Origin: an uncultured Candidatus Saccharibacteria bacterium
GTDB lineage: Bacteria > Patescibacteriota > Minisyncoccia > UBA6257 > 2-01-FULL-56-20
NCBI GenBank assembly: GCA_964646415.1
Contig: CAZYEL010000005.1
Coordinates: 18,601 to 67,053, forward strand
Length of the DNA: 48,453 bases
Reading direction: 5' to 3'
Below are positions 8,412 to 42,861 of this stretch, one piece after another. The notes under the pieces were generated by a model. That model worked only from the letters and a program-made list of their open reading frames with translations. It searched no databases and had not been told where the DNA came from. The position numbers and the translations under genes are program-made. The first letter of the stretch is position 1; each line of letters begins with the position of its first letter.

Positions 8412-8448
8412 AAGGTTAAACCTTAAGAATTCCCCAAGGTTCAACCTT
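8412..8448. promoter_or_regulatory. Double palindrome AAGGTTNAACCTT (copy A), upstream of paralog 1
   Basis: AAGGTTAAACCTT 8412-8424 and AAGGTTCAACCTT 8436-8448; ATG at 8459. Function inferred only. Confidence 0.6.
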
Positions 8449-8458
8449 GAAGAATCCA

Positions 8459-10237: not shown

Positions 10238-10244
10238 ACCCACC

Positions 10245-10281
10245 AAGGTTAAACCTTGGGAACCCCTAAAGGTTTAACCTT
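10245..10281. promoter_or_regulatory. Double palindrome AAGGTTNAACCTT (copy B), upstream of paralog 2
   Basis: AAGGTTAAACCTT 10245-10257 and AAGGTTTAACCTT 10269-10281; ATG at 10291. Confidence 0.6.
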
Positions 10282-10290
10282 AACGAATCC

Positions 10291-11985: not shown

Positions 11986-11991
11986 CGACCG

Positions 11992-19334: not shown

Positions 19335-19376
19335 TTGCGAAAATATAATATGATTATTATACTTGAAATACAAAGG

Positions 19377-19407
19377 AAAAAAAGCCACCAATCGCCCTGA
19401 CTGGTGG
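19377..19407 (-). terminator. Intrinsic terminator after the GT39 gene
   Basis: Minus strand: CCACCAGTC-AGGGC-GATTGGTGG then C and a T7 tract. Confidence 0.65.
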
Positions 19408-21621: not shown

Positions 21622-21658
21622 AGGTTGAACCTTAAAGAGTCCCTAAAGGTTCAACCTT
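21621..21658. promoter_or_regulatory. Double palindrome AAGGTTNAACCTT (copy C), upstream of paralog 4
   Basis: AAGGTTGAACCTT 21621-21633 and AAGGTTCAACCTT 21646-21658; ATG at 21669. Confidence 0.6.
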
Positions 21659-21668
21659 GAGCGAGTGT

Positions 21669-23471: not shown

Positions 23472-23505
23472 TTAGAAAATAGCAAGTAGAAATATAGAAA
23501 ATAGA

Positions 23506-25248: not shown

Positions 25249-25271
25249 ACACGACTGATGATTCATAGCCA

Positions 25272-27029
25272 ATGACGGAAGTGAGAACGTGCCAAAACTG
25301 CAAACAGGAATTTACGATAGCTCCCGAGGACTTTGATTTTTATAAAAAAGTAAAGGTTCCGCCCCCGACGTTTTGTTGGAAGTGTAGATTTCAGAGGAGA
25401 TTGACCTATAGGAACGAGCGGAATCCGTTTTGGGCGACGAGCGGTAAATCCGGGAAGCGGATACTCTCGATTTTTCCTCCCGAGGCGGGCGTTACGGTCT
25501 ATGATGAAAAGGAGTGGCGGTCGGATGATTGGGACGGGATGGACTACGGCAGGGATTATGATTTCTCGAGGCCGTTTTTCGAGCAAATACATGAATTAGC
25601 AAAAACGGTGCCGCGTTTCGGGCCGCACACGGAGGACAACGTGAATTGCGAGTACCTCGTCAATACCGGCTGGAGCAAAAACTGTTATCTCGTGTGCAAC
25701 ACTTCGTATGCGGAGGATTGCGCGTATGGTAACGCCATGGACTATTGCAAGTCCTCGTTCGATTGTTCGCATGTGACGAAATGCGAACGGTGTTATGGAT
25801 GTTTTTGGACCAGAGAGTCATATCAAACTCATTTTTCCACGCGCTCGATAAGCAATGCCTCAAGTTGGTGTCTCTTTGGTTGCAAAGGCATGACTGACTG
25901 TTTCGGGTGCGTGAATATGATGAACAAGAGCCACTATATCTTTAACCAGCCTTACTCCAGGGAAGAATACGAAGCGAAGATCGGGGCAATGAAGCTTAAT
26001 ACCTGGTCGGGACTCCAAAAAGCAAAGGCGGAGGCGTTTGCCTTCGCGGCAAAGTTTCCCGTGGCATATCTGAACGGAGTTCTGAATGACAACGTGACCG
26101 GGGAATATGTCAGTGAATCAAAGAATGTGCAGTATGGGTATCTGGTGAACGGCGGGAGAGATTTAAAATACGTGCAATACCTCCAAATTCCTGGCGCGGA
26201 GGATTCGCAGGACCTCACCATTTGGGGAGAAAAACACATATTGGGATATGAAAACGCGACCTCCGGCCTTGGAGTCTCAAATTGCCAGTTTTTGGAAGGA
26301 TGCTGGGCGGAGGTTTTTGATTCTCAATATTGTATTGCATGCCGCAACATTTCAAACTGTTTCGGGTGCGTGGGGTTGAAGAAAAAACAATGCTGTATTT
26401 TCAATAAGCAATATTCGAAAGGCGAGTATGAGAAGCTGAAAGCAAAAATAATCGCGCACATGAACGCGATGCCGTTCGTGGATAAAGCGGGAAGAGTATA
26501 TAAATATGGAGAATTTTTCCCTGCGGAGCATGCCCTTTGCGGGTACAACATCTCTCTGGCGAATGAACACTTTCCCTTGACCAAAGAGGAGGCATTGGCA
26601 CAGGGGTATCTGTGGACAGATATGAAATACGGGGATCACAAAGTGACGGTCATGCCGGACAAAATCCCCGATGCCATTGAAGATGTGCCCGACACGTTCA
26701 CGAAGGAAATTTTGGAATGCATGCAATGCAAAAAGGCATTCCGGGTAGTTCCCATGGAACTCGAATTCCTCAAAGCCGTAAAAATTCCGGTTCCGCGCAC
26801 GTGTGGCGACTGCCGACACAGTGAAAGGATTTCCCGGCGAGCGAAGGCGTTTCTCTACCATCAAACATGTGAATGTGCGGGGGCAAAATCCTCAAACGGG
26901 GTCTACGCGAATTTCACGAAGCATATTCATGGTGATGTGCCTTGTCCGGAAGAGTTTGAAACAAGCCATGATAAAAGTCGCCCTGAAATTGTTTATTGCC
27001 TCAAGTGTTTTTGGGCGGAAGTGGGGTAA
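25272..27029 (+). CDS. Cys-rich multi-zinc-ribbon protein, paralog 6 (most divergent)
   Basis: Same architecture, but the second CxxC/CxxC site is replaced (SGKS...YDEKE). Confidence 0.9.
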   Translation: MTEVRTCQNCKQEFTIAPEDFDFYKKVKVPPPTFCWKCRFQRRLTYRNERNPFWATSGKSGKRILSIFPPEAGVTVYDEKEWRSDDWDGMDYGRDYDFSRPFFEQIHELAKTVPRFGPHTEDNVNCEYLVNTGWSKNCYLVCNTSYAEDCAYGNAMDYCKSSFDCSHVTKCERCYGCFWTRESYQTHFSTRSISNASSWCLFGCKGMTDCFGCVNMMNKSHYIFNQPYSREEYEAKIGAMKLNTWSGLQKAKAEAFAFAAKFPVAYLNGVLNDNVTGEYVSESKNVQYGYLVNGGRDLKYVQYLQIPGAEDSQDLTIWGEKHILGYENATSGLGVSNCQFLEGCWAEVFDSQYCIACRNISNCFGCVGLKKKQCCIFNKQYSKGEYEKLKAKIIAHMNAMPFVDKAGRVYKYGEFFPAEHALCGYNISLANEHFPLTKEEALAQGYLWTDMKYGDHKVTVMPDKIPDAIEDVPDTFTKEILECMQCKKAFRVVPMELEFLKAVKIPVPRTCGDCRHSERISRRAKAFLYHQTCECAGAKSSNGVYANFTKHIHGDVPCPEEFETSHDKSRPEIVYCLKCFWAEVG

Positions 27030-27040
27030 AATAAGAAAGT

Positions 27041-28810
27041 ATGAACTTGGAAACTCGAACTTGCCAAAACTGCAAACAATCTTTCACAATCGAGCCAGAG
27101 GATTCCCAATTCTACGAGCGCGTGAACGTCCCGCCGCCGACATTTTGCCCTGATTGCCGACTCCAACGGCGGATGACGTTTCGGAACGAGCGCTCGCTCT
27201 ACAAGCGCACATGCGACCTTTGTAAAAAGCCGTTTGTCTCGATGTATTCACCTGACAAGCCCTTCACGGTGTATTGCAAAGAGTGCTGGTATTCCGATAA
27301 CTGGGACCCGCTTCAGTACGGGCAGGAATACGACTGGAAGAAACCTTTTTTCACGCAATTCCGGGAGTTGATGCATAAAGTGCCGCGCATTGGGATTATG
27401 CATATTCATACGAATATGAATGCCGACTTTGCAAATTATGTTGCAGACAGTAAAAACGTCTATCTCTCGCAATCGGTGATCGCGAAATCCGAAAACGTGT
27501 ATTATTCCCGAAATATTGATACGGGAAAAGATGTATTCGATTGCATGTATGTAAAAGAATCAGAGCGTTGTTATGAAGATTTGGATTGTTTGCACATGTA
27601 CCAAACGCAGTGGTGCGTTCGTTCGCGAGAGTGTCTTGGCTCCGCTTTTCTCTTTGATTGCGTAAGTTGTCAGGATTGTTTTATGAGCGCCAATCTTCGC
27701 AATAAGCGCTATGTGGTGCGCAATCAACAGCTTACGAAGGAAGAATATTCCGTGTTTATAGGGAAGTATAAAAAAGAGGGGTATGAAAGCAGTAAGAAAT
27801 ATCGCGGCGAGTTCCGGGAACTGATGCAACGTGCATTGCATAAATATGGAAATTTGCTCAAGTGCGTGGACTCAACTGGAGATAACCTGGACAATGTCAA
27901 AACAGTGAGAAATTCTTTCGATCTTTATGACGGAGAAAATCTTCGCTTTTGCCTTCGTAATGTAAAAAGCAAGGATTCGTATGATGTGGCTTTTGCAGTG
28001 AGTACTGAGTTGGCGTACGAAGGTATGGCGGCGGGATTTGGAAACTCCAGAGCTTTTTCCGTGGCTCATTGTGATGCGAACGAGAGAGTCTCATATTGTG
28101 ATTGGTGTCAGAGCTCCGCCGACCTTTTTGGATGCGCGGGTCTTCGTAAGAAACAGCATTTTATTTTGAACAAGCAGTATTCGAAAGAGGAATATGAAAA
28201 ATTGAAGGCGCGGATAATTGAGCATATGAACACGCTGCCATATGTCGATAAGACGGGAGGGGTGTATGCGTACGGCGAATTTTTCCCAGCCGAGCTTTCT
28301 CCGTTTGCTTATAATGAAACGCTTGCCGGAGAGTATTTTCCTTTATCGAAAGGTGAAACAGTGGCGCGGGGATATGTATGGCGCGAGTTGGATCCTTCGC
28401 CGCACAAACCCACCATTGTTGCAGGGGAACTTCCGGATGCAATTGCCGATGTTTCAGACGAAATACTCAAGGAAATTATCGAATGTACGGTGTGCAAACG
28501 CGTGTATCGAATACTCGCGCCCGAACTTGCGTTCTTGCGCCGCGAGGGGATTGTTTTGCCGCGCGAGTGCCAGGAATGTCGGCATAAAGACCGATTCGAT
28601 TTGCGGAATCCCTTAAAGCTTTGGCATCGGCGTTGTTGTTGCAGTGGCTTGAAAGGTAAAAATGAAAATGAAAGTGAGAATGAGTATAAGAATACTGCGA
28701 TGCATTTCCACGGGGCGGAGAAGTGTCTAAGTGAGTTCGAGACGAGCTACGCGCCCGAGCGGCCGGAGATGGTGTATTGTGAAAGTTGCTACCAATCAGA
28801 AGTTGTGTGA
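27041..28810 (+). CDS. Cys-rich multi-zinc-ribbon protein, paralog 7
   Basis: Same architecture; NENESENE hexamer expansion near the C-terminus. Confidence 0.9.
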   Translation: MNLETRTCQNCKQSFTIEPEDSQFYERVNVPPPTFCPDCRLQRRMTFRNERSLYKRTCDLCKKPFVSMYSPDKPFTVYCKECWYSDNWDPLQYGQEYDWKKPFFTQFRELMHKVPRIGIMHIHTNMNADFANYVADSKNVYLSQSVIAKSENVYYSRNIDTGKDVFDCMYVKESERCYEDLDCLHMYQTQWCVRSRECLGSAFLFDCVSCQDCFMSANLRNKRYVVRNQQLTKEEYSVFIGKYKKEGYESSKKYRGEFRELMQRALHKYGNLLKCVDSTGDNLDNVKTVRNSFDLYDGENLRFCLRNVKSKDSYDVAFAVSTELAYEGMAAGFGNSRAFSVAHCDANERVSYCDWCQSSADLFGCAGLRKKQHFILNKQYSKEEYEKLKARIIEHMNTLPYVDKTGGVYAYGEFFPAELSPFAYNETLAGEYFPLSKGETVARGYVWRELDPSPHKPTIVAGELPDAIADVSDEILKEIIECTVCKRVYRILAPELAFLRREGIVLPRECQECRHKDRFDLRNPLKLWHRRCCCSGLKGKNENESENEYKNTAMHFHGAEKCLSEFETSYAPERPEMVYCESCYQSEVV

Positions 28811-31971: not shown

Positions 31972-33045
31972 ATGAAGAATATTCACTTTCCGTTGTTCAA
32001 AACGAAAATCGAAAAGCTTCGGCATCGGTTCGATTTGAGCGACCCGAAGGAGCGGAAAAAGTATTTCCACGCAAAGGCGGGGAAAGAAATTGTAAAGCTG
32101 CGGAAGTACCTCAAGAAGAACACGTTTGTGGGGTATCTCCTCGGCAAAAAGAATTCGGGGAAGGGGACGTATTCGAAGCTTTTTATGGAGGCAATCGGCG
32201 AGGAGCATGTCCAGCATATTTCCGTGGGGGACGTGGTGCGGGATATGTTTGCGGCGCTTTCGTCGAAGAAGCGGAAAAAAGAGCTTGTGGATTTCCTCGA
32301 TCGCAATTACCGCGGGTTCCATTCCATTGAGGAGACGGTGAAGCTCATTGCGAACAAAAATCAGTCGACGCTTATTCCCTCGGAGCTAATCCTCGCGCTT
32401 ATCAAATTCGAAATCAGCAAGCGCCCGAAGAAAGCGCTTTTTATCGACGGATTCCCGCGCGCGCTCGACCAGATTACGCACTCGCTCTTTTTGAAAGAGA
32501 TTATCGGTTACCGCGAGGACCCGGACTTTTTCATTTTCATTGAAGTGCCGGAGGCGGTTATTGATGAGCGTATGAAGTCGCGCGTGGTGTGTCCCATTTG
32601 CAAGACGCCGCGCGGACTGAAGCTTCTCACGACGAAGCGCGTGGGGTACGACGAAGACATGAAGCAGTTTTACCTTATCTGCGACACGCCGTCTTGTGCG
32701 GGCGAGCGGATGGTGGCGAAAGAGGGGGACGAGCTCGGTATCGAACCCATCCGGCAGCGACTCGAACTCGACGACCAGATTTTTCGCCGGCTCATGGCAC
32801 TCCGCGGGATTCCCAGGATTTCTCTGCGCAATTCGATTCCGGTAACGCAGGCAAAAAAGTATGTGGATGACTACGAAATCACGCCTGCCTACGATTACCG
32901 GCGCGACCAGCACACCGGCAAGGTGATTACGAGCCAGAAGCCCTGGACGGTCAAGGACGATGACGGGGTGCGTTCTTACAGCTTGCTCCCGGCGGCAATC
33001 GTGGTTGCGCTTATCAAGCAGATTGTGGAGGTGCTGGGGTTGTAG
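31972..33045 (+). CDS. Adenylate-kinase-like nucleoside monophosphate kinase
   Basis: P-loop GKKNSGKGT, HISVGDVVR, IDGFPRALDQ, LID-like RVVCPIC...CDTPSC. Confidence 0.75.
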   Translation: MKNIHFPLFKTKIEKLRHRFDLSDPKERKKYFHAKAGKEIVKLRKYLKKNTFVGYLLGKKNSGKGTYSKLFMEAIGEEHVQHISVGDVVRDMFAALSSKKRKKELVDFLDRNYRGFHSIEETVKLIANKNQSTLIPSELILALIKFEISKRPKKALFIDGFPRALDQITHSLFLKEIIGYREDPDFFIFIEVPEAVIDERMKSRVVCPICKTPRGLKLLTTKRVGYDEDMKQFYLICDTPSCAGERMVAKEGDELGIEPIRQRLELDDQIFRRLMALRGIPRISLRNSIPVTQAKKYVDDYEITPAYDYRRDQHTGKVITSQKPWTVKDDDGVRSYSLLPAAIVVALIKQIVEVLGL

Positions 33046-33080
33046 AGGCGTAGTGGCGCAATAGAAGGGAGAATCTCCCT

Positions 33081-33308
33081 CTACTCTTCGAGATACCCTC
33101 CCGTTTGGTTTTTGTTCGGATATGTGCGGATTGATTCCTCAATCGTATCCATCGCATCCTCAAGCTTCCGGGCGACATTTTCGATGACGCGTCCGCGGTC
33201 AAGCGATCCCGTTTGGAAGTTGCCGAGAAGATTCCATGCCTCGTGGCCGATTTCAAATGAAATTGTGCTAAGGTACTTCGGCATTTCTTCGGGTGAAATG
33301 ATTGCCAT
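33081..33308 (-). CDS. Hypothetical 75-aa protein under a fluoride riboswitch
   Basis: Most plausible ORF between the riboswitch and the convergent kinase; no motif recognised. Confidence 0.55.
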   Translation of the reverse strand: MAIISPEEMPKYLSTISFEIGHEAWNLLGNFQTGSLDRGRVIENVARKLEDAMDTIEESIRTYPNKNQTGGYLEE

Positions 33309-33330
33309 AGGAATAGGTTAAAGGTTTTAG

Positions 33331-33350
33331 CCTGCCTGCCGGTAGGCAGG
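33331..33350. repeat. 20-bp REP-like palindrome CCTGCCTGCCGGTAGGCAGG
   Basis: Reverse complement of 13773-13792; flanked on the minus strand by ctacaac ccacaac ... ctaaaac ctttaac heptamers. Confidence 0.9.
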
Positions 33351-33390
33351 GTTGTGGGTTGTAGATGCAAACACAAACCGACCTTTCAAT

Positions 33391-33420
33391 AAAAATCCTC
33401 TACCCTAAAAGTGGTAGAGG
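33391..33420 (-). terminator. Terminator overlapping the fluoride aptamer 3' strand
   Basis: CCTCTACC-ACTTTTAG-GGTAGAGG then ATTTTTATT. Confidence 0.8.
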
Positions 33421-33467
33421 TCATCAGTCCCGCATGAGCCGGGACGGTTATTGCGAACCTCATCGCC
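33414..33467 (-). promoter_or_regulatory. Fluoride (crcB) riboswitch aptamer
   Basis: Minus strand: GGCGATGAGGTTCGC-AATAACC-GTCCCG-GCTCATG-CGGGAC-TGATGACCTCTAC. P1 GCGA/TCGC, pseudoknot GAGGT/ACCTC, conserved GATG and CTGATG. Confidence 0.9.
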
Positions 33468-33891
33468 TGTCCTTATTATACAATTTCAAATACATTTCCA
33501 CCGGTTCGCGGGTGGTTTGGGTGAGCGGTTCGGGGAGCTTGTCGATTGGAAACCAGCCGAATTCCTTGGTTTTGTCCGGTTCACAGTTTCGAGGTTTGCC
33601 TTTTGTGATGCGCGCGAGGTAGTGGAACGCCACCCAATGTTCTTTTTCTGCGGGGAGAATTTGGTTGGTAAATCCGAGGGATTCAAGGAGTTCGATTTCC
33701 ACTCCGAATTCTTCTTTTACTTCGCGCCGCACGGCGTCCTCCACCGTTTCGCCGTACTCCACGGCGCCGCCGGGTTTGCACCACATGCCAATCTCGTTCC
33801 TGTTTTTGCGCTTGAGGAGAAGGGTCTCGCCGCAGTCGTTCACGATGAGCGCGCCGCACCCCACGCCGATGTAGTCTTTTCCAGGTTCCAT
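33460..33891 (-). CDS. NUDIX hydrolase
   Basis: Nudix box GGAVEYGETVEDAVRREVKEEFG; start at ATG 33891 (alternative GTG 33918). Confidence 0.92.
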   Translation of the reverse strand: MEPGKDYIGVGCGALIVNDCGETLLLKRKNRNEIGMWCKPGGAVEYGETVEDAVRREVKEEFGVEIELLESLGFTNQILPAEKEHWVAFHYLARITKGKPRNCEPDKTKEFGWFPIDKLPEPLTQTTREPVEMYLKLYNKDRR

Positions 33892-33939: not shown

Positions 33940-34671
33940 TTATTCCTTCGACTTCTCAATTTTTTTGAGCAACGCATCAAGGTCACCATCCAAAACCTTC
34001 TCAATATTATGTACTTTAGCACCAAACCTATGATCAGTTATTCTGTCGTCGGGGAAGTTATACGTGCGGATTTTCTCCGAGCGGTCGGCGGAGCCCACCT
34101 GCTCGCGCCGCATGTCGGTGACGGAACCGGTCGCTCTCTTTTGTTCCATATCGTAAAGCTTTGCGCGGAGCACCTCAAGCGCTTTCTCGCGGTTCGCATG
34201 CTGCGAGCGTTCCTCGCGGCAGGAGACGACGATGCCGGTGGGCTTGTGGAGAATCCGCACGGCGGTTTCCACCTTGTTCACGTTCTGCCCACCGGGGCCT
34301 CCCGCGCGGGAAAAGCTTACCTCAAGGTCGCCGAGGTTCACCGACACATCTTTTGCTTCCACAATCGGAAGAACCGCTACCGACGCGGTTGATGTATGCA
34401 CGCGTCCCGCTTTTTCCGTCTTTGGGATGCGCTGGACGCGGTGGACGCCCGATTCTTGCTTCAACGTTTCATATACTCCTTCGCCTTTGATTTCCGCGAC
34501 GAGCGATTTGAAACCGCTCAAGGATGTCTCGTTCTTGTCAAGAATGGCGAATCCCCAGCCCCGTTGGGCGGCATAGCGCTGATACATCCGCCCCAAATCT
34601 CCCGCGAAAATAGCGGCTTCATCGCCTCCCGCTCCCGCCCGTATTTCCATGATTATTTTTTGAGTGTCCAT
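33940..34671 (-). CDS. prfA: Peptide chain release factor 1 lacking domain 1
   Basis: [27 protein letters not shown] (PxT), [20 protein letters not shown]; 243 aa. Confidence 0.88.
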
Positions 34672-34786
34672 GTAATTATTGAAAGAGTTATTGATATTCC
34701 TCGCAGGGTTTTGCGACGCTATGCGGACCCGGTGCATTTCCGCCCTACTAAGATAATATCTCTACCATATATGATATACTGAATCA

Positions 34787-35176
34787 ATGACGCAAGCATT
34801 GCTTCTTCTTGTGGTGGACGATGAGCCGTACTTCCGGGAAATATTTTCGAAGAAGCTTGTTTCTGCCGGTTTTCGCGTGGAAACCGCGGACAGCGGAGAA
34901 GCGGGAGTGAAGAAGGCAAAAGAGCTTCGCCCCAATTTGGTGCTTATGGACGTGAAAATGCTTGGCGTGGATGGTATTCACGCCATGATGAAAATAAAAG
35001 AAGATCCGCTTATGAAAGACACGAAAGTGGCGTTTCTTACGAATGCGGGAGAACGCACCGAGGAGAGCGGGTATGAAGGAGATCGCCAAGCCGCAAAGGG
35101 GATAGGCGCGGCGGGATATATCCAAAAAACGAACAATCTGGACGAAATCGTGAAGCAGATAAAGTCGCTTTTATAG
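34787..35176 (+). CDS. Stand-alone response regulator receiver 1
   Basis: VVDDE, LVLMDVKM (phospho-Asp), FLTN, YIQK. Confidence 0.92.
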   Translation: MTQALLLLVVDDEPYFREIFSKKLVSAGFRVETADSGEAGVKKAKELRPNLVLMDVKMLGVDGIHAMMKIKEDPLMKDTKVAFLTNAGERTEESGYEGDRQAAKGIGAAGYIQKTNNLDEIVKQIKSLL

Positions 35177-35192
35177 GCAACTGGCCCTCCTC

Positions 35193-35609
35193 ATGCCTTC
35201 TGCAAGAAAGAAGCCCGTGGTACTTGTGGTTGACGACGAAGCGCATTTTCTGGAGATTATGCGGTTAAAGCTCGCCGCCTCCGGTTTCAAGCCTGCGGTG
35301 TTTCAATGCGATACTGCGGCGCCCGCCGCCGAGCAATGTATGAAGCTTATGCCCGACCTTGTGCTTCTTGATATTTATCTTGCGGGAAAGCCGACTGGTC
35401 TTGATGCGGCGTACGCAATCAAGAAAAACCCCAAGACACAAGGAGTGAGGATCCTCTTTTGGAGTTCCTTTAACCGCGCGGCACTCGAGGGCTTTGGCAA
35501 ATCTTACCGGGCGGATATTGCATTTGAAGAAGGCGATTTTCTCGACAAGACCGCGGATCTCCAGATGGTAACCACAAGAATCCGAGAAGCACTCACGCAT
35601 GAGGTGTGA
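35193..35609 (+). CDS. Stand-alone response regulator receiver 2
   Basis: VVDDE, LVLLDIYL, FWSS, FLDK. Confidence 0.88.
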   Translation: MPSARKKPVVLVVDDEAHFLEIMRLKLAASGFKPAVFQCDTAAPAAEQCMKLMPDLVLLDIYLAGKPTGLDAAYAIKKNPKTQGVRILFWSSFNRAALEGFGKSYRADIAFEEGDFLDKTADLQMVTTRIREALTHEV

Positions 35610-35619
35610 AGAATGCCTA

Positions 35620-36645
35620 ATGGCGGATCATCCTATGCAAAAGAATTATCTTGCGTGGGACATCGTATACGAAGATTTTTGGCGAAAATCGGCGGGGCGC
35701 GAACGGTTGCAATTTCTTCTGAACTTCGCGGTGCTTGCGCCGTCAAGCCATAACAGCCAGCCGTGGCGGTTTCGGGTCGGCGACGCGCATATTGAGATAC
35801 TGCCCGACCTTCGGCGGGCGCTCCCGGTGAGCGACCCCGATAACCGGCATCTTTTTATCGGGTTGGGATGCGCGCTCGAAAATATTCTCGTCGCTGCGGA
35901 TTATTACGGTCTGGAAACGACGGTCGAATATATGCCGGAAAACGGAGTGGAAATTGCGGTTCGCGTACTTTTTGCCGGCGGGGGAGCAAAGAATACCGAC
36001 GCGAGGCATCTTATTTTTTCGATTCCGCAGCGCCGGATGAACCGGAACCGATACCGCGAGCACCCTTCGCTCACGGCGTTTTTCGCATGGGCGAGCAGTT
36101 TTGCTTCCGAGGAGGTGTGCGTGGAAACGGTTGCTGACCAGGCGAAGAAAGAGCGCATCGCCGATATTCTTATGGAATCGCGAGTGCGTGCATTTTCGCA
36201 TAAGCCTTTTCGCCATGAAATGGCGGGGTACAAAAGAAATAACCTCACGCATTCCGGGGTGGGCATTACGGGAAACACGATGGGATTCAGCACTCCATTC
36301 TCGCTCATTGCGCCGTTTCTAATCCGGCACATGAACGTGATGAAGGTGATTCGGAAAAGCGAAGAGCGATTACTCAAAAACGATACGCCGGTTTTTGTGA
36401 TTGTGGGAACGCATGAGAATAATCCTCGCGCATGGATTCTTGCAGGCCGGGCGCTTGAACGACTCCTGCTTGAAACGGAGCGCCGGGGGCTGGCGGCGGC
36501 GATAAGCGCGGTTCCGCCGGACGTCGCACCCCTCCAAAAGGCGCTTGGAACAAAATGCCGCCCCCAAATGTTTCTTCGTTTGGGATACGCGGAAAAACTG
36601 CCGCCGCATTCGCCGCGGCTTCGGGCGGAGGAAGTAGTCGAATAA
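35620..36645 (+). CDS. Acg-type twin nitroreductase-fold FMN protein
   Basis: AVLAPSSHNSQPWRF, GLGCALEN, RRMNR..Y, AGRALERLLL, LRLGYA. Confidence 0.85.
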   Translation: MADHPMQKNYLAWDIVYEDFWRKSAGRERLQFLLNFAVLAPSSHNSQPWRFRVGDAHIEILPDLRRALPVSDPDNRHLFIGLGCALENILVAADYYGLETTVEYMPENGVEIAVRVLFAGGGAKNTDARHLIFSIPQRRMNRNRYREHPSLTAFFAWASSFASEEVCVETVADQAKKERIADILMESRVRAFSHKPFRHEMAGYKRNNLTHSGVGITGNTMGFSTPFSLIAPFLIRHMNVMKVIRKSEERLLKNDTPVFVIVGTHENNPRAWILAGRALERLLLETERRGLAAAISAVPPDVAPLQKALGTKCRPQMFLRLGYAEKLPPHSPRLRAEEVVE

Positions 36646-36649
36646 TCCC

Positions 36650-37693
36650 ATGTCTATAAAGAGAATCAAAACTAAAAAATTTCCGGAATACGACCGGCAC
36701 GAGAGTGTGACGCGGATAGAGAATCGGGAGCTTGGGGTGGTGGGATTCATTGCCGTGCACCGGAGGAAAGGGGAAAATCCTTCACTTGGAGCTACCCGCC
36801 TCTGGAGCTATGGGGAGGAGTCCGAAGCGTTACGGGATGCGTTGCGGCTTTCGTGGCTTATGTCGTACAAATCGGCGTTCGCCGAGCTTCCGTACGGCGG
36901 GGCGAAAGCGGCGCTGGTTCTTCGGGGAGAGATGCCCGACCGGGAAGAGCTTTTCGCTTGGTACGCCGAAGCGGTAAACAGTCTTAAAGGGAAATTCGTC
37001 ACGGGGTCGGACGTGGGGGTGAGTCCGCAGGACGTGGAGCGGATGCGCGCCGGAAGCCGGTTCATCATCGGGAACGGCGTTCCCGCGGAGCACTATACGG
37101 CCGTGGGGGTGGTAAAGAGCATCGAGGCGGCGCTTGAAGCGGTGTATGGTTCTCCCGCGATTCAGGGAAGAACATTTGCGGTGCAGGGGCTTGGGAAGAC
37201 GGGTCTTGGACTTGTGCGGCTTTTGTATCCTCATGCGAAGAAGATAACCGTTTCAGATGTGAGCCCGGAGAAATTGCAGGATGCCCGGAAAGAGTTCCCG
37301 CAGCTCGTGTTTGAAGAGCCGTCCCGCATTCATCAGGCGGAGGCGGATGTGTTTTCCCCATGTGCATTGCATCACAGTGTGAACGCCCGCACGGTAAAGG
37401 AATTGCATTGCCGGGCGGTTGTGGGAAGCGCAAACAACCAGCTTGAAAGCGCACAGGTGGGCGAGGAACTCCATGCACGCGGGATTCTCTACGCTCCGGA
37501 CTATGTGGCGAACAATGGGGGGCTTATCAGCGTTGCCGACCAATATGCGGGCGGCACTCACGATGACGCGCGAATTATGCGGCAGATAGAACATTCACAG
37601 GAAAAGCTCAAAGGGATACTTGTCGAGAGTAAAGCTACGGGAACTCCTCCGGTCACGCTCGCCGACCGGCACGCCGCTTCCATGCTTGCATGA
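36650..37693 (+). CDS. Leu/Phe/Val (ELFV family) amino acid dehydrogenase
   Basis: GATR, MSYK, YGGAKA, GSDVG, QGLGKTG, SPCAL, GSANNQL, APDYVANNGG. Confidence 0.9.
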   Translation: MSIKRIKTKKFPEYDRHESVTRIENRELGVVGFIAVHRRKGENPSLGATRLWSYGEESEALRDALRLSWLMSYKSAFAELPYGGAKAALVLRGEMPDREELFAWYAEAVNSLKGKFVTGSDVGVSPQDVERMRAGSRFIIGNGVPAEHYTAVGVVKSIEAALEAVYGSPAIQGRTFAVQGLGKTGLGLVRLLYPHAKKITVSDVSPEKLQDARKEFPQLVFEEPSRIHQAEADVFSPCALHHSVNARTVKELHCRAVVGSANNQLESAQVGEELHARGILYAPDYVANNGGLISVADQYAGGTHDDARIMRQIEHSQEKLKGILVESKATGTPPVTLADRHAASMLA

Positions 37694-39243
37694 GTACTGT
37701 GGAGAAATCCGGTTCCCGTTTCCCCGATGCGCCGCTTGGGCTTGGCGCGACGGAGACGCTCACGCTTTTGCGCCATATGGATGAGTATGGATGGATGCGG
37801 CGCGGCGAGAGGCGTACGCTCAAGTTCTTTCACGAGGCGGCGCAGCGGGTTCCCGCATACAAGGATTTTTTGGAGAAAAACGGAGTCAAACCCGAGCTTG
37901 TGAAAACGATCGGGGATTTCAAAAAGATCCCGCTTACCACCAAAGAAAACTATTTGCTGCAGTATCCTCTCGCGGAGCTTTCATGGGATGGGAACTTCAC
38001 GCGCGGGAAGTGGATAATCTCGTCCACGTCGGGGTCTACGGGAGAACCTTTCTATTTCCCGAGAACCCGCTATCAGGACGAGCAGTTCACGCTTACCGCC
38101 GAGCTTTGTTTCCGGGAATTCTTCGGCATTGAAAGAAAATCCACGCTTTTTATAGATTGTTTTGCTTTGGGGGTTTGGATCGGGGGAATGTTCATGTATC
38201 AGGTGGTGCGCACGCTCATTGATTCCGGGCGGTATCGGCTTTCTCTCATCACTCCGGGCGCGGACAAAACCGAAGCGATTAAGGCGTTCAAAAACCTTGC
38301 GCCGCATTTCGACCAGGTAATCATCGGAGGATACGCTCCGCTCGTGAAGGATTTAATCGACGACGGAGTGCGGGCGGGCATCGAATGGCGCAAATACGAT
38401 GTGAAATATTTTTTCGCCGCGGAGGGGTTCACCGAAGGATTTCGGGATTACATTGTAGCGCATGGGGGAGTAAAGCATCCTCTTGCGGGTACGCTCAATC
38501 ACTATGGCACGGCGGATTTGGGCACTATGGCGCACGAAACTCCATTGAGCATTCTGGTGCGGCGTCTTGCGGTGAACGACGAGGCGCTTTTTGGGAAGAT
38601 TTTCCCCGAAGCATACCGGGAGCCCACGCTCACGCAGTTTATTCCCGAGCTTTTTTATTTTGAGGAAGTGGAGGGTGTTCTTGCGTGCTCCGCGCTCGGA
38701 GGGTTGCCCTTGCTTCGGTATAATTTGAAAGACAGGGGCGGGGTGGCAACGCTTGAGGCGGTTGCGGCGCATTGCGCGGCGCGGGGAATGGATTTATTTG
38801 AGGAGGCGAGGCAGCGGGGAGTCGGGAACATGCTCTGGCAGCTGCCGTTCGTTTATCTTTACGAGCGGGATGACCTTGTGGCAAGTATCTACAGCGTGAA
38901 TATCTATCCGCAAAGTATCCAGCGGGCGCTCCAGCGTCAGGAGTTTGAAGAGATGCTCACCGGGAAATTCACGTTATGGGTTGATTACGACGGCGCGCAG
39001 AATCAGGTTTTGAAGATTTATATCGAATTGAAAACGGGAGCACGCGTGGGCGAGGCGTTTGAGGGAAAGGTTCTTGCGGCAGTGCTCGAAGTGTTGCATA
39101 AGGAAAATTCGGAATGGCGTGACTTCTACGCCCAGGAGCATATTCGCGACAAGGTGACGCCACGGCTTGAGTTTTTGAATTATCAGGACCCGGCGCATTT
39201 TGCTCCCGGCCGAAAACAGAAATGGGTAAAAAAGAAAGCATGA
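37690..39243 (+). CDS. Phenylacetate-CoA ligase (PaaK)-like ANL adenylating enzyme
   Basis: VPAYKDFL, KKIPLTTK, STSGSTGEP, YGTADLG, PLLRYNLKD; ATGA overlap with the dehydrogenase. Confidence 0.85.
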   Translation: MSTVEKSGSRFPDAPLGLGATETLTLLRHMDEYGWMRRGERRTLKFFHEAAQRVPAYKDFLEKNGVKPELVKTIGDFKKIPLTTKENYLLQYPLAELSWDGNFTRGKWIISSTSGSTGEPFYFPRTRYQDEQFTLTAELCFREFFGIERKSTLFIDCFALGVWIGGMFMYQVVRTLIDSGRYRLSLITPGADKTEAIKAFKNLAPHFDQVIIGGYAPLVKDLIDDGVRAGIEWRKYDVKYFFAAEGFTEGFRDYIVAHGGVKHPLAGTLNHYGTADLGTMAHETPLSILVRRLAVNDEALFGKIFPEAYREPTLTQFIPELFYFEEVEGVLACSALGGLPLLRYNLKDRGGVATLEAVAAHCAARGMDLFEEARQRGVGNMLWQLPFVYLYERDDLVASIYSVNIYPQSIQRALQRQEFEEMLTGKFTLWVDYDGAQNQVLKIYIELKTGARVGEAFEGKVLAAVLEVLHKENSEWRDFYAQEHIRDKVTPRLEFLNYQDPAHFAPGRKQKWVKKKA

Positions 39244-40343
39244 AAAATAGCATGGAAGAAAAACCGGTGATTCTCCGCCAGGGAGTGAACTCCCTCGAAG
39301 ATTTGGTGCGCCTTCGGGCGGAAAAAAGGGTATGGCGCGAGAAGGACATTTACAAAAATCAATGCGAAGAGCTTTTTGAGATTACTTATCCGGAGCGCAT
39401 CGGCACCCCCGATTTCAAAGAAGCCCGGGCGGCGTTCGTGGAGACTCGCCTCGCGGAATGTAAAGTGCGCCTCGCGGGGAACTGGGTTTATTTCCCGTGG
39501 AGCGGGGTTTTGCTTCACACGGTTAAGGAGGAGGAATACGCGCGTTTGCGCACGAATCGGAACCGGAATCTCATCACCGAAGAGGAACAGCGGAAACTGG
39601 CGGATTCTTGCGTGGGACTTGTCGGACTTTCCGTCGGCAGCAATGTTGCCGCGGCGCTTGTGTACGGCGGCATCGCGAAGCGGCTTAAGCTCGCGGAGTT
39701 CGATGTGCTTGAGACGACGAACTTGAACCGCGTACGCGGGCGCCTGGAGCATATCGGCATGAAAAAATCGCAGATGGTCGCACAGCAGCTTTATGAGGTG
39801 GATCCATACCTCCAGCTTGTGCATTACGAAGAGAAAATGAGCGCCGGGAACCTACGGGAGTTTTTCCGTGATGAACCGCGGCCGCAGGTCGTGTTTGAAA
39901 TCATGGACAGCTTCGAGGTGAAGCTCCAGCTTCGGGCGTTCGCGCGGGACTACGGCGTTCCGGTGATTATGGTGACCAATCTGGGAGACCGGGTGCTCAT
40001 GGATATCGAGCGGTATGACATCGACAAAAATATCGAATACTTCAACGGCAGGGCGGGGAGTGTTCCCCGCGACATTTTGGAACGCCCCGACGTAAACGAT
40101 GCGTTGAAGCACCAATATGCGGTTGCTCTCGCGGGCGTAGAGCATATCCCGCAGCGGGCGCTCGACTCTGTGGCGGAAATCGGAAAAACGCTTGTGGGGC
40201 GGCCGCAACTCGCGAGTACCGTGGCGCTTGCGGCGGGATTTGGGGCATATTGCACCCGGAAAATCATTCTTGGAGAACCGCTGCCCAGCCGTTCATGGCT
40301 TGTGGATCTTGAGAAGATATTCAGCGAGCCCAATGCGCTATGA
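39240..40343 (+). CDS. ThiF-family adenylyltransferase, Rv1355c-like ThiF module
   Basis: VYFPW, RTNRNRNLIT.EEQ, VGLVGLSVGS, EFDVLETTNLNRV, RPQLAS; ATGA overlap with the ligase. Confidence 0.85.
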   Translation: MKNSMEEKPVILRQGVNSLEDLVRLRAEKRVWREKDIYKNQCEELFEITYPERIGTPDFKEARAAFVETRLAECKVRLAGNWVYFPWSGVLLHTVKEEEYARLRTNRNRNLITEEEQRKLADSCVGLVGLSVGSNVAAALVYGGIAKRLKLAEFDVLETTNLNRVRGRLEHIGMKKSQMVAQQLYEVDPYLQLVHYEEKMSAGNLREFFRDEPRPQVVFEIMDSFEVKLQLRAFARDYGVPVIMVTNLGDRVLMDIERYDIDKNIEYFNGRAGSVPRDILERPDVNDALKHQYAVALAGVEHIPQRALDSVAEIGKTLVGRPQLASTVALAAGFGAYCTRKIILGEPLPSRSWLVDLEKIFSEPNAL

Positions 40344-41209
40344 ATGAAATTACGGAAAAGAATCTCGCGAACGCGGTGGGAGTGCTTGTTACAATCAGGA
40401 GCATTGCGGTTGATGGGTACGAGATTAATTACGCAGTTGCGGGGTCGGGTCCCGCACTTCTTCTCCTGCACGGCGGGAACTTCGGGTGGGGGATGTGGTA
40501 TCCAAACATCGCGGAGTTCGCAAAACGTTTTACCGTATATGCGATGGACTTGCCGGGCGCGGGGCGTTCTTCCCCGGTAGATTACAGGCATCTCAATCCC
40601 GAGAAAGATTTTACTCAGACTGCGCTGCACTTCATCCGTGCATTGGGACTTTCTTCGGTTTCGGTTATCGGGCACTCGATAGGCGCATGGGCAGCGCTCC
40701 GTCTTGCTTCTGGAGGCGGATCGGAAGTGAGGAAGCTTGTGCTGGCTGACCCCGTGGGATTTTCCACGCACGCGGGATTTCCGGAAAAGGTTTTGGGAAT
40801 GTACCCCTTCGCGCTCTTTCTTGGAAACACGGTGCTCCGTCCGCGGCGGGGCAATAAGAACCTTGAACGGTTTCTTCGGAGCGCATTTTATAACGCCGCG
40901 CTTCCTTTAACTCCCGAGTTTGTTGATTATTTCTACGAAACGATGAAGCGGTCGCATGGAATACGGCTTATAAGCCGTCTGATCGCGTTGCGGAGGGATT
41001 TTTTCCTTCCGGACGCGCTTGCATATGTGCGGGAACGTGCCTTAATAATCTGGGGGGAGAACGATGCCACCCTTCCCTTTAAGAACACAGTATTGTTTCG
41101 CAATCCCGTTCCCGGCATCCGGGTGGAAGTTTTCCCGATGACCGGGCATGTTCCCTCGCTTGAGCAGAAAGAGCGTTTCAATACGATAGCGATGCAATTC
41201 CTTTCATGA
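40340..41209 (+). CDS. Alpha/beta hydrolase
   Basis: LHGGN, GHSIG (GxSxG), WGEND, GHVPS triad; ATGA overlap with ThiF. Confidence 0.92.
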   Translation: MNEITEKNLANAVGVLVTIRSIAVDGYEINYAVAGSGPALLLLHGGNFGWGMWYPNIAEFAKRFTVYAMDLPGAGRSSPVDYRHLNPEKDFTQTALHFIRALGLSSVSVIGHSIGAWAALRLASGGGSEVRKLVLADPVGFSTHAGFPEKVLGMYPFALFLGNTVLRPRRGNKNLERFLRSAFYNAALPLTPEFVDYFYETMKRSHGIRLISRLIALRRDFFLPDALAYVRERALIIWGENDATLPFKNTVLFRNPVPGIRVEVFPMTGHVPSLEQKERFNTIAMQFLS

Positions 41210-41228
41210 TTTTTTCCAACTCTTTTCT

Positions 41229-42824
41229 ATGATTACCCTTCCGCTCCGCCTTACGATTCTCTTCATCGCCGTTACGGTGAACGTTTTTTTGCTCATCGCG
41301 GTGTACCGAAGCGATGCGAAGAGCGCGACCAACAGGAGCTACGCGGCGCTGAGTCTTGTGATGTCGATTTGGCTTCTCGCATCGTTTCTTTCCGTGAGTC
41401 CGGAGACGAATTTGCTCTGGGCGCGCCTCACGGTGTGCTTTGCGACGCTCATGAGCATGCTGTTCTTTGTGCTTGCCTACACGCTTCCGGCGCGAACTTT
41501 TACGCTTCGCCGAAGATGGAGCGTGCTTATGGGCGCAAGCACACTCGGCGTGATGGCGGTGACGCTCTCGCCGCTTGTGTTTGAGGGGATTCGCATGAAA
41601 GGCGGCAGTCCGGAGCTCATCGTCGGACCGGGCATCGCCTCGTTCGCGATTCTCACCTCGCTTTTTACTCTGGCGGCAATTGTGGCGCTGGTCGCAAAAG
41701 CCCGCCATGCGCAAGGCGTAGAGAGGAAACAGCTTCTCACGGTGCTGTGGGGGATTGTGAGCATGGTGGGCCTGCTTATTGGGACAGTCCTTGTTCCTGT
41801 CGCAGCGTTTCAGAACGATTTCTTTGTGGCATTCATTCCTCTGTACACGCTGTTTTTTCTGGGGATGACCGCATACGCTATTGTGCAATATCAGCTTTTT
41901 AACTTGAAGGTCATCGCCACCGAGGCGGTGACGACGGTGCTATGGGTGGTGCTTTTCTCCCGGATTGTGACTTCGGAGTCGACGGGAGAAATGGTGGCGG
42001 ATGTGCTTGTCTTCGTTCTCGCGGTGGTCTTCGGGTTATTTCTCATTCAAAGCGTGCGGCAGGAGGTGCGGCAGCGCGAGGAACTTGAGCGGCTCGCGCA
42101 CGAGCTTGAAGCCGCAAATGCAAAGCTCTCCGACCTCAACCGTTTCAAGACGCAGCTCCTTTCGCTTGCGTCGCATCAGATTAAGTCGCCGCTCGCGGCA
42201 ATCAAGGGCTTCATTTCGCTGCTCCTTGAGGGGCTTTATGGTCCCGTGAGCGAAACGGTGAAGGAAACACTTGGGAAGATAAAGATTTCCACCGATAATC
42301 TTGTGGAGCTTATTAACTCATTGCTTGACTTGCGGAAAGTGGAAGAAGGGAAGATGGATTACCGGTTTGTGCGCACGGACTTTGGCGTATTGGTAAAGAA
42401 CGTTTTTGAAGGACTTGCGCCGCTTACGAAAGTGAAAAAATTACAATTTGAATATGCAGGCCCCGCGCAGCCGCTTTTCGTAAATGCCGACGCGCAGAAG
42501 CTCTCGCAGGTGGTGCAGAACCTTATCGATAACGCAATCAAGTACACCCCATCCGGGTTTGTGAGGGTGATAGTCAAGAGCGAGGGCGATATGGCGGTAT
42601 GCGAAGTTTCCGATTCGGGACTGGGGATGAAGCCCGAATTTATTCCGCGGATGTTCGATGAATTTGTCCGTGACGAGCGAGTGAAGAAAGAAATCAAAGG
42701 CACGGGGCTCGGGCTTTATATCGCACGGAAGATTGTAGAGGCGCACGGAGGAACTATCGGGGCCTCATCGCAGGGTGAAGGGAATGGGAGCCGGTTTTTT
42801 GTAAGACTGAAGCTGGCACAATAG
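41229..42824 (+). CDS. Membrane sensor histidine kinase with N-terminal multi-TM (about 7) input region
   Basis: About 260 hydrophobic residues, coiled coil, H-box SHQIKSP, N-box NLIDNAIKY, DSGLG, GTGLGL. Confidence 0.93.
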   Translation: MITLPLRLTILFIAVTVNVFLLIAVYRSDAKSATNRSYAALSLVMSIWLLASFLSVSPETNLLWARLTVCFATLMSMLFFVLAYTLPARTFTLRRRWSVLMGASTLGVMAVTLSPLVFEGIRMKGGSPELIVGPGIASFAILTSLFTLAAIVALVAKARHAQGVERKQLLTVLWGIVSMVGLLIGTVLVPVAAFQNDFFVAFIPLYTLFFLGMTAYAIVQYQLFNLKVIATEAVTTVLWVVLFSRIVTSESTGEMVADVLVFVLAVVFGLFLIQSVRQEVRQREELERLAHELEAANAKLSDLNRFKTQLLSLASHQIKSPLAAIKGFISLLLEGLYGPVSETVKETLGKIKISTDNLVELINSLLDLRKVEEGKMDYRFVRTDFGVLVKNVFEGLAPLTKVKKLQFEYAGPAQPLFVNADAQKLSQVVQNLIDNAIKYTPSGFVRVIVKSEGDMAVCEVSDSGLGMKPEFIPRMFDEFVRDERVKKEIKGTGLGLYIARKIVEAHGGTIGASSQGEGNGSRFFVRLKLAQ

Positions 42825-42861
42825 AAAACCCGCCGGGTCCACAGGACAGGCGGGGGTGCAA

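Follow-up and report, generated by a model that had tools for sequence, protein, structure and literature searches.

How do the Patescibacteria (the candidate phyla radiation, CPR) sense their hosts or one another? These organisms account for a large part of bacterial diversity, and their tiny genomes hold very few genes for regulation or biosynthesis. The question is raised by a set of eight genes on the + strand of a 48,453-nucleotide stretch of DNA (the window) from an uncultured Candidatus Saccharibacteria bacterium (contig CAZYEL010000005.1, positions 18,601 to 67,053). The genes span positions 34787-42824 of the window and encode, in this order, two stand-alone receivers (RR1 and RR2), an Acg-family flavin-dependent oxidase (FDO), an ELFV dehydrogenase, a PaaK-like ANL ligase, a ThiF-like adenylating enzyme, an alpha/beta-fold hydrolase and a membrane histidine kinase with a HisKA_7TM sensor region. 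A preliminary description of this DNA had taken them for a quorum-sensing-like circuit; all eight co-directional genes and the families that it named were recovered by open reading frame (ORF) calling, at the same coordinates, and by domain profiles. The reading that we favor, with a probability of about 0.55, is that the genes form a five-enzyme small-molecule pathway with a dedicated intramembrane-type sensor kinase in one operon, and that this module is conserved across many lineages of Patescibacteria. The product would probably be an oxazolone-type compound derived from an acylated amino acid, and the module may serve as a small-molecule signalling system. A search of the available literature library found no description of the cluster and no link between oxazolones, the product class suggested by two of the enzymes, and Patescibacteria.

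Recurrence of the enzymes with the kinase

First, the gene set was looked for in one genome per species with an alignment of ThiF homologues as anchor, and the gene content of the 56 loci obtained was scored by tblastn and ORF-level blastp. The loci came from metagenome-assembled genomes (MAGs) labelled Parcubacteria, Magasanikbacteria, Lloydbacteria, Doudnabacteria, Woesebacteria, Woykebacteria, Gottesmanbacteria, Staskawiczbacteria and Saccharibacteria, from one Margulisbacteria single-cell genome and from several actinomycete MAGs. The ligase, ThiF and FDO genes stood side by side in about 45 of the 56 loci, the ELFV gene was found in about 29 and the hydrolase gene in about 23, and no additional conserved family, N-acyltransferases included, appeared in the set. 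In the CPR loci, a HisKA_7TM kinase gene lay directly downstream on the same strand wherever the contig continued. The kinase gene followed the last enzyme gene at a median distance of about 6 nt (range -17 to 51 nt; 34 loci).

The association was also examined from the side of the kinase. Metagenome contigs were scanned with the kinase 7TM region as anchor, using a 10-sequence alignment; a 30-sequence alignment gave no stretch conserved enough to anchor the scan. A locus counted as informative if it had 4 kb or more of upstream sequence and a 7TM identity of at least about 31%. Of the 28 informative loci, 27 had enzyme genes upstream of the kinase; four of these showed just a single one of the five at the threshold used. 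The six 7TM kinases that were more distant (at most 30% identity) and had upstream sequence of equal length lacked the enzyme genes. The data showed that the association of the enzymes with the kinase is specific in both search directions. Altogether, the enzymes and the 7TM kinase were found together in 88 fetched loci, a set that holds some mutually duplicate loci, and this recurrence of the same gene set places the arrangement far above chance. A lack of co-occurrence elsewhere had been named in the preliminary description as something that would refute it, but the five enzymes and a multi-transmembrane kinase recur widely whichever anchor is used. Since six to eight genes are spent on a secondary-metabolite-like pathway and its kinase and are kept across many CPR lineages, the module likely matters to the lifestyle of these organisms.

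The five enzymes were also tied to one another by gene fusions, which points to one pathway. The FDO and the hydrolase formed a single ORF in six loci, and ThiF and the hydrolase did so in two; ThiF and FDO were fused in 8 of 136 loci (one CPR-type locus and seven actinomycete MAGs). The ELFV dehydrogenase was fused to the FDO in locus L009, the closest relative of the window cluster, and to the ligase and ThiF in a 1252-aa protein of L014, and the database proteins P0128, P0269, P0311 and P0335 were further ELFV-ligase and larger fusions. In nine Saccharibacteria-labelled loci without the ELFV gene, a divergently transcribed gene for a class I/II aminotransferase adjoined the ligase gene. This aminotransferase is a non-orthologous replacement of the dehydrogenase, which pins the step to the interconversion of an amino acid and a 2-oxo acid. 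Alignments of homologues showed that catalytic residues were kept in every one of the five enzymes, and neither a signal peptide nor a transmembrane (TM) segment was predicted in any of them.

The ligase gene was inverted (- strand) between ThiF and FDO in seven loci (L066, L068, L071, L076, L079, L085 and L090), in which ThiF, FDO and the kinase remained on the + strand. Two paralogous HisKA_7TM kinase genes lay beside the enzymes in L012, L021 and L022, both downstream in the first two loci and one on each side of the enzymes in the third. CPR-type modules were also seen in MAGs labelled 'uncultured Gammaproteobacteria' (L008, L015, L017-L019, L024, L039, L045 and L055). These labels were rejected; they look unreliable because the flanking genes of L008 (tRNA synthetases, a bactofilin and a DAGK-like gene) are common to Magasanikbacteria loci. 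No ThiF entry was found in the annotation tables of the cultivated saccharibacterium S. epibionticum, and its transposon sequencing data therefore say nothing on the module.

Predicted chemistry of the five enzymes

In the oxazolone pathways described from bacteria, an N-acyl amino acid is adenylated, cyclized and desaturated between C-alpha and C-beta; TrzS, TyzBC and OxzB carry out the cyclization and desaturation experimentally, and the characterized systems all rely on an acyl-CoA-dependent N-acyl amino acid synthase (PMC12856293, PMC10404671, 10.1101/2020.06.11.147165). The kinship of the window ThiF and FDO to OxzB, TyzB, TyzC and TrzS was judged by NCBIfam models as a proxy. ThiF matched the model of the Rv1355c family (NF005901) over profile positions 5-340, the N-terminal extension included, and the C-terminal half of the same model matched the FDO at 5.5e-22; Rv1355c is now TrzS, a tryptazolone synthetase (PMC12856293). 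ThiF aligned with E. coli ThiF and TcdA; its residues D161, R170, K182 and D229 fall on the ATP site of the E. coli ThiF in the alignment and were kept in 77 homologues. The closest solved structure to the FDO was Acg (2ymv), its APSxxNxQPW motif and R145 were at least 93% conserved (71 homologues), and its gene adjoined or was fused to ThiF in nearly all of the 56 ThiF-anchored loci. Among the curated families, ThiF and FDO were thus closest to the oxazolone-forming Rv1355c/TrzS type, as the preliminary description had said of ThiF. That description had also pointed out that ThiF and nitroreductase, fused in OxzB, are separate genes here. They are, but the feature is not unusual, as TyzB and TyzC, an oxazolone-forming pair encoded by separate ThiF and oxidase genes, have already been characterized (PMC10404671).

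A different reading would be built around ThiF alone, with the genes serving either the modification of a ribosomally synthesized and post-translationally modified peptide (RiPP), of the thiazole/oxazole-modified microcin (TOMM) or microcin C-like kind, or E1-type conjugation or defence. ThiF/E1-like proteins do pair with FMN dehydrogenases in TOMM clusters, and weak matches to models of the E1-E2 type of cyclic oligonucleotide-based antiphage signalling systems (CBASS) were obtained (best 43 bits). We hold this reading to be extremely unlikely. TOMM/RiPP modification was rejected, as no YcaO domain and no precursor-peptide ORF was found in the cluster and the spaces between the genes, at 4-25 bp, are too short to hold one. 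CBASS E1-E2 (Cap2) was also rejected: the PADLOC matches, at most 43 bits, reflect generic E1 Rossmann similarity alone and lie far below the score of the Rv1355c model (258 bits); neither a ubiquitin-like protein nor an E2 partner accompanied them, and PADLOC gave no further hit.

The analysis shows the gene content, its conservation, the fusions and the intact catalytic residues. From homology we infer the chemistry that follows: which substrates are used, what the product is, which way the first step runs, what the hydrolase does and what the kinase binds. The ELFV dehydrogenase (the aminotransferase in Saccharibacteria) would interconvert a hydrophobic or aromatic amino acid and its 2-oxo acid; it could supply either the amine partner or a 2-oxo acid for the ligase. 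The PaaK-like ligase would activate a carboxylic acid as an acyl-adenylate and form an N-acyl amino acid, standing in for the acyl-CoA-dependent synthase of the known systems. ThiF would adenylate the carboxylate of the N-acyl amino acid and cyclize it to a 5(4H)-oxazolone, in the manner of TrzS and TyzB, and the FDO would desaturate the C-alpha/C-beta bond, in the manner of TyzC and the C-terminal domain of TrzS. Where it is present, the hydrolase would act directly on the activated ring, either opening it to an N-acyl dehydroamino acid or transferring the acyl group to an acceptor. The kinase would be co-transcribed with the enzymes and, in the window, would signal via the two stand-alone receivers. 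CPR bacteria have been reported to lack fatty-acid and CoA biosynthesis, and a CoA-independent entry step would therefore suit them.

The comparison with characterized systems showed which parts of this scheme are shared. TrzAS (Rv1356c/Rv1355c) of M. tuberculosis and its relatives has the same two units, a ThiF-like cyclase and a flavin-dependent oxidase (PMC12856293). D229 of the window ThiF, taken to correspond to the adenylation Asp of TrzS, D217, is conserved, and R145 of the window FDO may correspond to TrzS R540. Unlike TrzAS, the window has ThiF and FDO as separate genes with scores below the family cutoff, has a PaaK-like ligase and no TrzA-type N-acyltransferase, adds genes for a dehydrogenase, a hydrolase and a kinase, and belongs to a CPR host rather than to the Actinomycetota. 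The tyrazolone pathway TyzACB (Rv2336-Rv2338c) has ThiF and FDO split as in the window (PMC10404671). Both TyzACB and OxzAB of Pseudoalteromonas rubra follow the same logic, from an N-acyl amino acid through ATP-dependent cyclization to flavin-dependent desaturation. However, they need the acyl-CoA-using synthases TyzA and OxzA, and their clusters have no ligase, amino-acid dehydrogenase, alpha/beta hydrolase or sensor kinase. Clusters that combine NasY with ThiF and a nitroreductase make N-acyl dehydroamino acids with an open ring (stieleriacines, thalassotalic acids and kyonggic acids); these clusters contain an N-acyl amino acid synthase (NAS) acyltransferase, no dedicated hydrolase has been described in them, and they occur in Planctomycetota, Pseudomonadota and Actinomycetota (PMC12479983). 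Their ring-open N-acyl dehydrotyrosines are what would be expected of the window hydrolase acting on an oxazolone. The present module is new in its entry step by a ligase, in its enzyme for amino-acid/oxo-acid conversion, in the hydrolase fusions and in being found in CPR. It would extend the biosynthesis of oxazolones and N-acyl amino acids to a new phylum, and would add to it an entry by a ligase instead of an acyl-CoA N-acyltransferase.

No N-acyltransferase of the OxzA/TyzA/TrzA/NasY type was found in the cluster, in its flanks or in the other large window ORFs that were scanned, which bears out the absence remarked on in the preliminary description; that a ligase takes the place of the acyltransferase, in line with its suggestion that the ligase makes the acyl donor or the amide, is reasonable. 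The PaaK-like ligase was invariably present instead, and in some genomes it forms the middle part of a fusion, with the dehydrogenase before it and ThiF after it. The ligase had no Pfam hit, AMP-binding included, and scored 41.7 bits against the phenylacetate-CoA ligase model TIGR02155 (cutoff 646), so that it is not orthologous to that enzyme. Its AlphaFold model (pLDDT 87) gave the best Foldseek matches with PaaK1/2 and BT_0428 (E about 5e-22) and with 2-hydroxyisobutyryl-CoA ligase (about 1e-21). The fold and the ANL motifs are the same as in these enzymes, and the phosphate-binding SGSTG loop and the C-terminal catalytic K509 are conserved among homologues. The window protein differs from the PaaK family in being about 80 residues longer, in an identity of 16-18% and in scores far below the PaaK cutoffs. 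By Foldseek, the modelled ligase is a PaaK-type ANL enzyme. Its family comprised 1377 clusters at 90% identity in a word-index search, and 832 clusters at 50% identity in an exhaustive profile search (E<=1e-30). Some PaaK-like enzymes of benzoxazole biosynthesis appear to join the adenylate straight to a nucleophile, and AjiA1 (6wuq), a weak match, may belong to them.

The actinomycete MAG loci L046-L058 (e.g., L046:8358-12010) carry ThiF-FDO fusions whose score of 323 bits falls short of the Rv1355c cutoff. A conserved PaaK/DVU1553-like ligase of 470-524 aa precedes the fusion in nine of the loci, with neither a TrzA-type acyltransferase nor a 7TM kinase. These ligases are only distantly related to the window ligase. 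A ligase paired with ThiF and FDO seems to be a broader, undescribed variant that is also found outside CPR.

The closest solved structures to the ELFV protein were tryptophan dehydrogenase 5b37 (1.5e-59) and leucine dehydrogenases, about equally, and K74, K86, D121 and the GxGxxG motif, which align with those of leucine and tryptophan dehydrogenase, were conserved. The score against the tryptophan dehydrogenase ScyB model was 240 bits (cutoff 600), so it is not a specific orthologue of ScyB. A dehydrogenase or aminotransferase together with a PaaK-like ligase recalls the first steps of the breakdown of aromatic or branched-chain amino acids, and kinases beside catabolic operons often sense substrates. 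The module could on these grounds be thought to catabolize or salvage a host-derived amino or aryl acid, with the kinase sensing the substrate and with ThiF and FDO unrelated to oxazolones. We regard this as very unlikely, since the module contains no decarboxylase, oxidoreductase, thiolase or other downstream catabolic gene and no DNA-binding regulator, since two ATP-consuming activating enzymes in series indicate biosynthesis, and since the ThiF match to the oxazolone-forming family takes in the N-terminal extension.

The closest solved structures to the hydrolase were HsaD/BphD (1.5e-22), and its conserved triad S113-D242-H270 aligns with S114, D241 and H269 of HsaD. A substrate-binding Arg of the HsaD R192 type and a Trp after the catalytic His are hallmarks of meta-cleavage-product hydrolases. 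The equivalents of HsaD R192 and Trp270 in the window protein are Phe and Val, and the assignment as a meta-cleavage-product C-C hydrolase was rejected because both hallmarks are missing. No signal peptide was predicted, which places the protein in the cytoplasm, and the gene is missing from about half of the loci. The preliminary description had cast the hydrolase as the eraser of the signal. A cytoplasmic enzyme that is fused to the FDO (6 loci) or ThiF (2 loci) and is dispensable is a pathway enzyme rather than an eraser, and the most economical reading is that it would perform a tailoring step, hydrolysis or acyl transfer, on the activated azlactone.

The kinase and what it may sense

The kinase matched HisKA at 1.2e-13 and HATPase_c at 3.1e-27, and its H, N, G1 and G2 boxes are intact (SHQIKSPL, DNAIKYT, DSGLGM and GTGLGL). 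The HisKA_7TM sensor region is followed by two further helices, the DHp domain and the catalytic domain. The AlphaFold model showed nine membrane helices (pLDDT 75), with a short beta-hairpin at 118-132 as the only non-helical element of the membrane region and with no extracytoplasmic domain. The alignment behind the model was shallow, as the 7TM region alone gave 8 matches in the word-index homologue search, and Foldseek matched kinase cores only and was uninformative on the sensor. In the Saccharibacterial and Gottesmanbacterial kinases, about 200 aa are inserted after the 7TM region and ahead of DHp. No ligand is known for HisKA_7TM (PMC5847659). A kinase without an extracytoplasmic domain most plausibly responds to a membrane-soluble ligand, and we infer that a product or intermediate of the pathway is the leading candidate. 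What is most unexpected in the module is that the enzymes are coupled, phylum-wide, to a 7TM kinase of their own; this coupling is undescribed, and it makes a signalling role testable. Histidine kinases and two-component systems are not mentioned in the main text of some CPR papers.

The same arrangement of a synthase gene beside a gene for a multi-TM kinase without periplasmic domain is seen in CqsA-CqsS of Vibrio and LqsA-LqsS of Legionella. In kinases of the CqsS/LqsS type, the TM helix bundle binds the lipophilic signal within the membrane. CqsA and LqsA are pyridoxal phosphate-dependent acyltransferases, CqsS and LqsS have six TM helices, and their phosphorelays are known; these proteins are unrelated to those of the window, and the likeness is one of logic only. 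A far-reaching proposal would be that the module is the first dedicated signalling system of CPR, in which a CoA-independent oxazolone or N-acyl dehydroamino-acid autoinducer is sensed in the membrane by the 7TM kinase, with stand-alone receivers instead of transcription factors as output, for the sensing of density or for communication with the host cell. We put it forward tentatively and judge it rather unlikely. If true, it would provide the first ligand of a HisKA_7TM domain and a physiological role for bacterial oxazolones. The module is a testable candidate for chemical communication in CPR. Through it, both the purpose of bacterial oxazolones and the ligands of HisKA_7TM domains could be approached.

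The two receivers of the cluster appear intact: a reading of the sequence showed that the DD, D54, T and K positions of RR1 are intact and that RR2 has the acidic pocket and Asp60. Relatives of RR1 lay near the kinase in a minority of loci (82% identity in L009, 48% in L073, 54% in L104 and 53% in L116), and the RR1-RR2 pair occurred with the cluster only in L009. All receiver ORFs called in the ThiF-anchored loci were short (about 120-170 aa), which is consistent with stand-alone receivers without a DNA-binding domain. A receiver was found within 6.5 kb of the kinase in just 17 of the 88 loci. The constant relay of the preliminary description thus did not hold up, and the relay part is a lineage-specific feature.

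These results bear on the circuit as it was first proposed, in which an oxazolone is the signal, with the kinase as its sensor, the receivers as the relay and the hydrolase as the enzyme that breaks it down. The coupling of the enzymes and the kinase in both search directions favors it, and a kinase in the same operon would permit positive feedback, as in CqsA/CqsS and LqsA/LqsS. Oxazolones are labile in water and have been proposed as signals (10.1101/2020.06.11.147165; PMC12856293). However, receivers are scarce near the kinase, the cluster contains no exporter, and the hydrolase lacks a signal peptide, is fused to the FDO or ThiF in eight loci and is absent from about half of them; a quencher fused to its own synthase is implausible. 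The circuit in this form is, in our judgment, unlikely.

The product could also be a component of the membrane or envelope, either a lipid derived from an N-acyl amino acid or an acylated envelope acceptor, and the kinase could monitor the state of the membrane instead of a diffusible signal. In M. tuberculosis, tyrazolones form a described class of lipids (PMC10404671). The kinase model is wholly embedded in the membrane, like intramembrane-sensing kinases, and the fusions of the hydrolase with the ring enzymes fit an oxazolone as an activated acyl donor. CPR bacteria, which are not known to make fatty acids of their own, must remodel scavenged material. On the other hand, PaaK-like ligases typically take small or aryl acids and not long-chain fatty acids, and the module has no lipid-handling or envelope genes as conserved companions, which leaves a membrane component improbable.

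Several points weigh against the five-enzyme pathway with its sensor kinase as we read it. The window proteins did not reach the Rv1355c equivalog cutoff of 476 bits (258 bits for ThiF and 78 bits for FDO), as was also the case for their fused relatives in actinomycete MAGs, with just 323 bits; ThiF and FDO are a sister group of Rv1355c, not its orthologues. The pathway has no known product, and the sequence of the ligase does not reveal its substrates. The characterized enzymes of the PaaK family mostly yield CoA thioesters, not amides. The known FDOs of the oxazolone pathway use O2, and many groundwater CPR bacteria are thought to be anaerobic. Adjacency shows the coupling of the kinase to the pathway, not the sensing of its product, and the module lacks a conserved response regulator. 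Even for the characterized systems, no physiological role of oxazolones is known, and the tryptazolones made there were mostly intracellular (PMC12856293).

Operon layout and neighboring features

The stretch 34787-42824 reads as one operon. Three consecutive ATGA overlaps, noted in the preliminary description, were read in the sequence at 37690, 39240 and 40340, with a small correction to the starts of FDO and ThiF, and the remaining junctions had gaps of 16 bp, of 10 or 25 bp according to which FDO start is taken, of 4 bp and of 19 bp. The start of FDO is uncertain among 35599, 35620 and 35635 (annotated/likely, 35620/35635), and ThiF has the alternative starts 39222 and 39252 (annotated/likely, 39240/39252); the longest-ORF starts of FDO (35599) and ThiF (39222) run into the preceding genes. 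Promoter-like and terminator-like sites within the operon were no commoner than in shuffled sequence. The flanks are housekeeping genes, a prfB-like gene that is divergent upstream and an L31 gene that is convergent downstream behind a GC-rich hairpin. The TATACT upstream of RR1 was not among the results of the consensus promoter scan and is a candidate only; terminator-like matches were found on the - strand at 42840-42826 and 42845-42829. Among named homologues, those nearest to the cluster proteins carry Patescibacteria (CPR) or Parcubacteria annotation, which agrees with the earlier remark on a reduced genome.

Table 1. Features of the cluster and its borders, in window coordinates.
Feature	Coordinates	Strand	Evidence
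RR1, stand-alone receiver, 129 aa, no output domain	34787..35176	+	Response_reg PF00072, 2.6e-21
RR2, second stand-alone receiver, 138 aa	35193..35609	+	PF00072, 4.1e-10, 84/111 profile positions
FDO, Acg-family FMN oxidoreductase	35620..36645	+	NF047509, 223 bits (cutoff 199)
ELFV amino-acid dehydrogenase, Leu/Trp/Phe type	36650..37693	+	Pfam ELFV_dehydrog and its N-terminal domain
PaaK-like ANL adenylate-forming ligase, 517 aa	37690..39243	+	Weak PaaK match (5e-11), Foldseek
ThiF-like ATP-dependent adenylating enzyme/cyclase, Rv1355c (TrzS) N-terminal type	39240..40343	+	NF005901, 258 bits
Cytoplasmic alpha/beta-fold serine hydrolase or acyltransferase	40340..41209	+	Abhydrolase_6, Abhydrolase_1
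Membrane histidine kinase	41229..42824	+	HisKA_7TM PF16927, HisKA PF00512, HATPase_c PF02518
Candidate operon promoter region, AT-rich, 49 bp, between prfB-like gene and RR1	34738..34786		TATACT 8 nt before RR1 ATG
Candidate bidirectional terminator, GC-rich inverted repeat CCCGCC...GGCGGG	42826..42855		Between kinase stop and convergent L31 gene

The release-factor gene upstream (33940-34737, - strand) encodes just 265 aa, and its PCRF match begins at profile position 92; the N-terminal part is missing or lies in another frame, as with a prfB-type programmed frameshift. A fluoride riboswitch (RF01734, 40 bits) was found at 33408-33476 on the - strand, upstream of a small ORF at 33014-33376. 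This ORF is 120 aa as the longest ORF and 75 aa as called on the source contig, had no Pfam match, and is not evidently CrcB or another fluoride exporter.

Elsewhere in the window, seven paralogues of about 565-604 aa lie in tandem arrays of three and four at 8447-13746 and 21657-28810 (+ strand). Their mutual identity is 34-45%, their N-termini carry CxxC...CPxC zinc-finger-like motifs, and no Pfam domain was found in them except one weak C-terminal treble-clef zinc finger. An ORF of 807 aa at 16968-19391 (- strand) contains two complete D-Ala-D-Ala ligase units in tandem, with the N- and C-terminal Ddl domains each matched twice.

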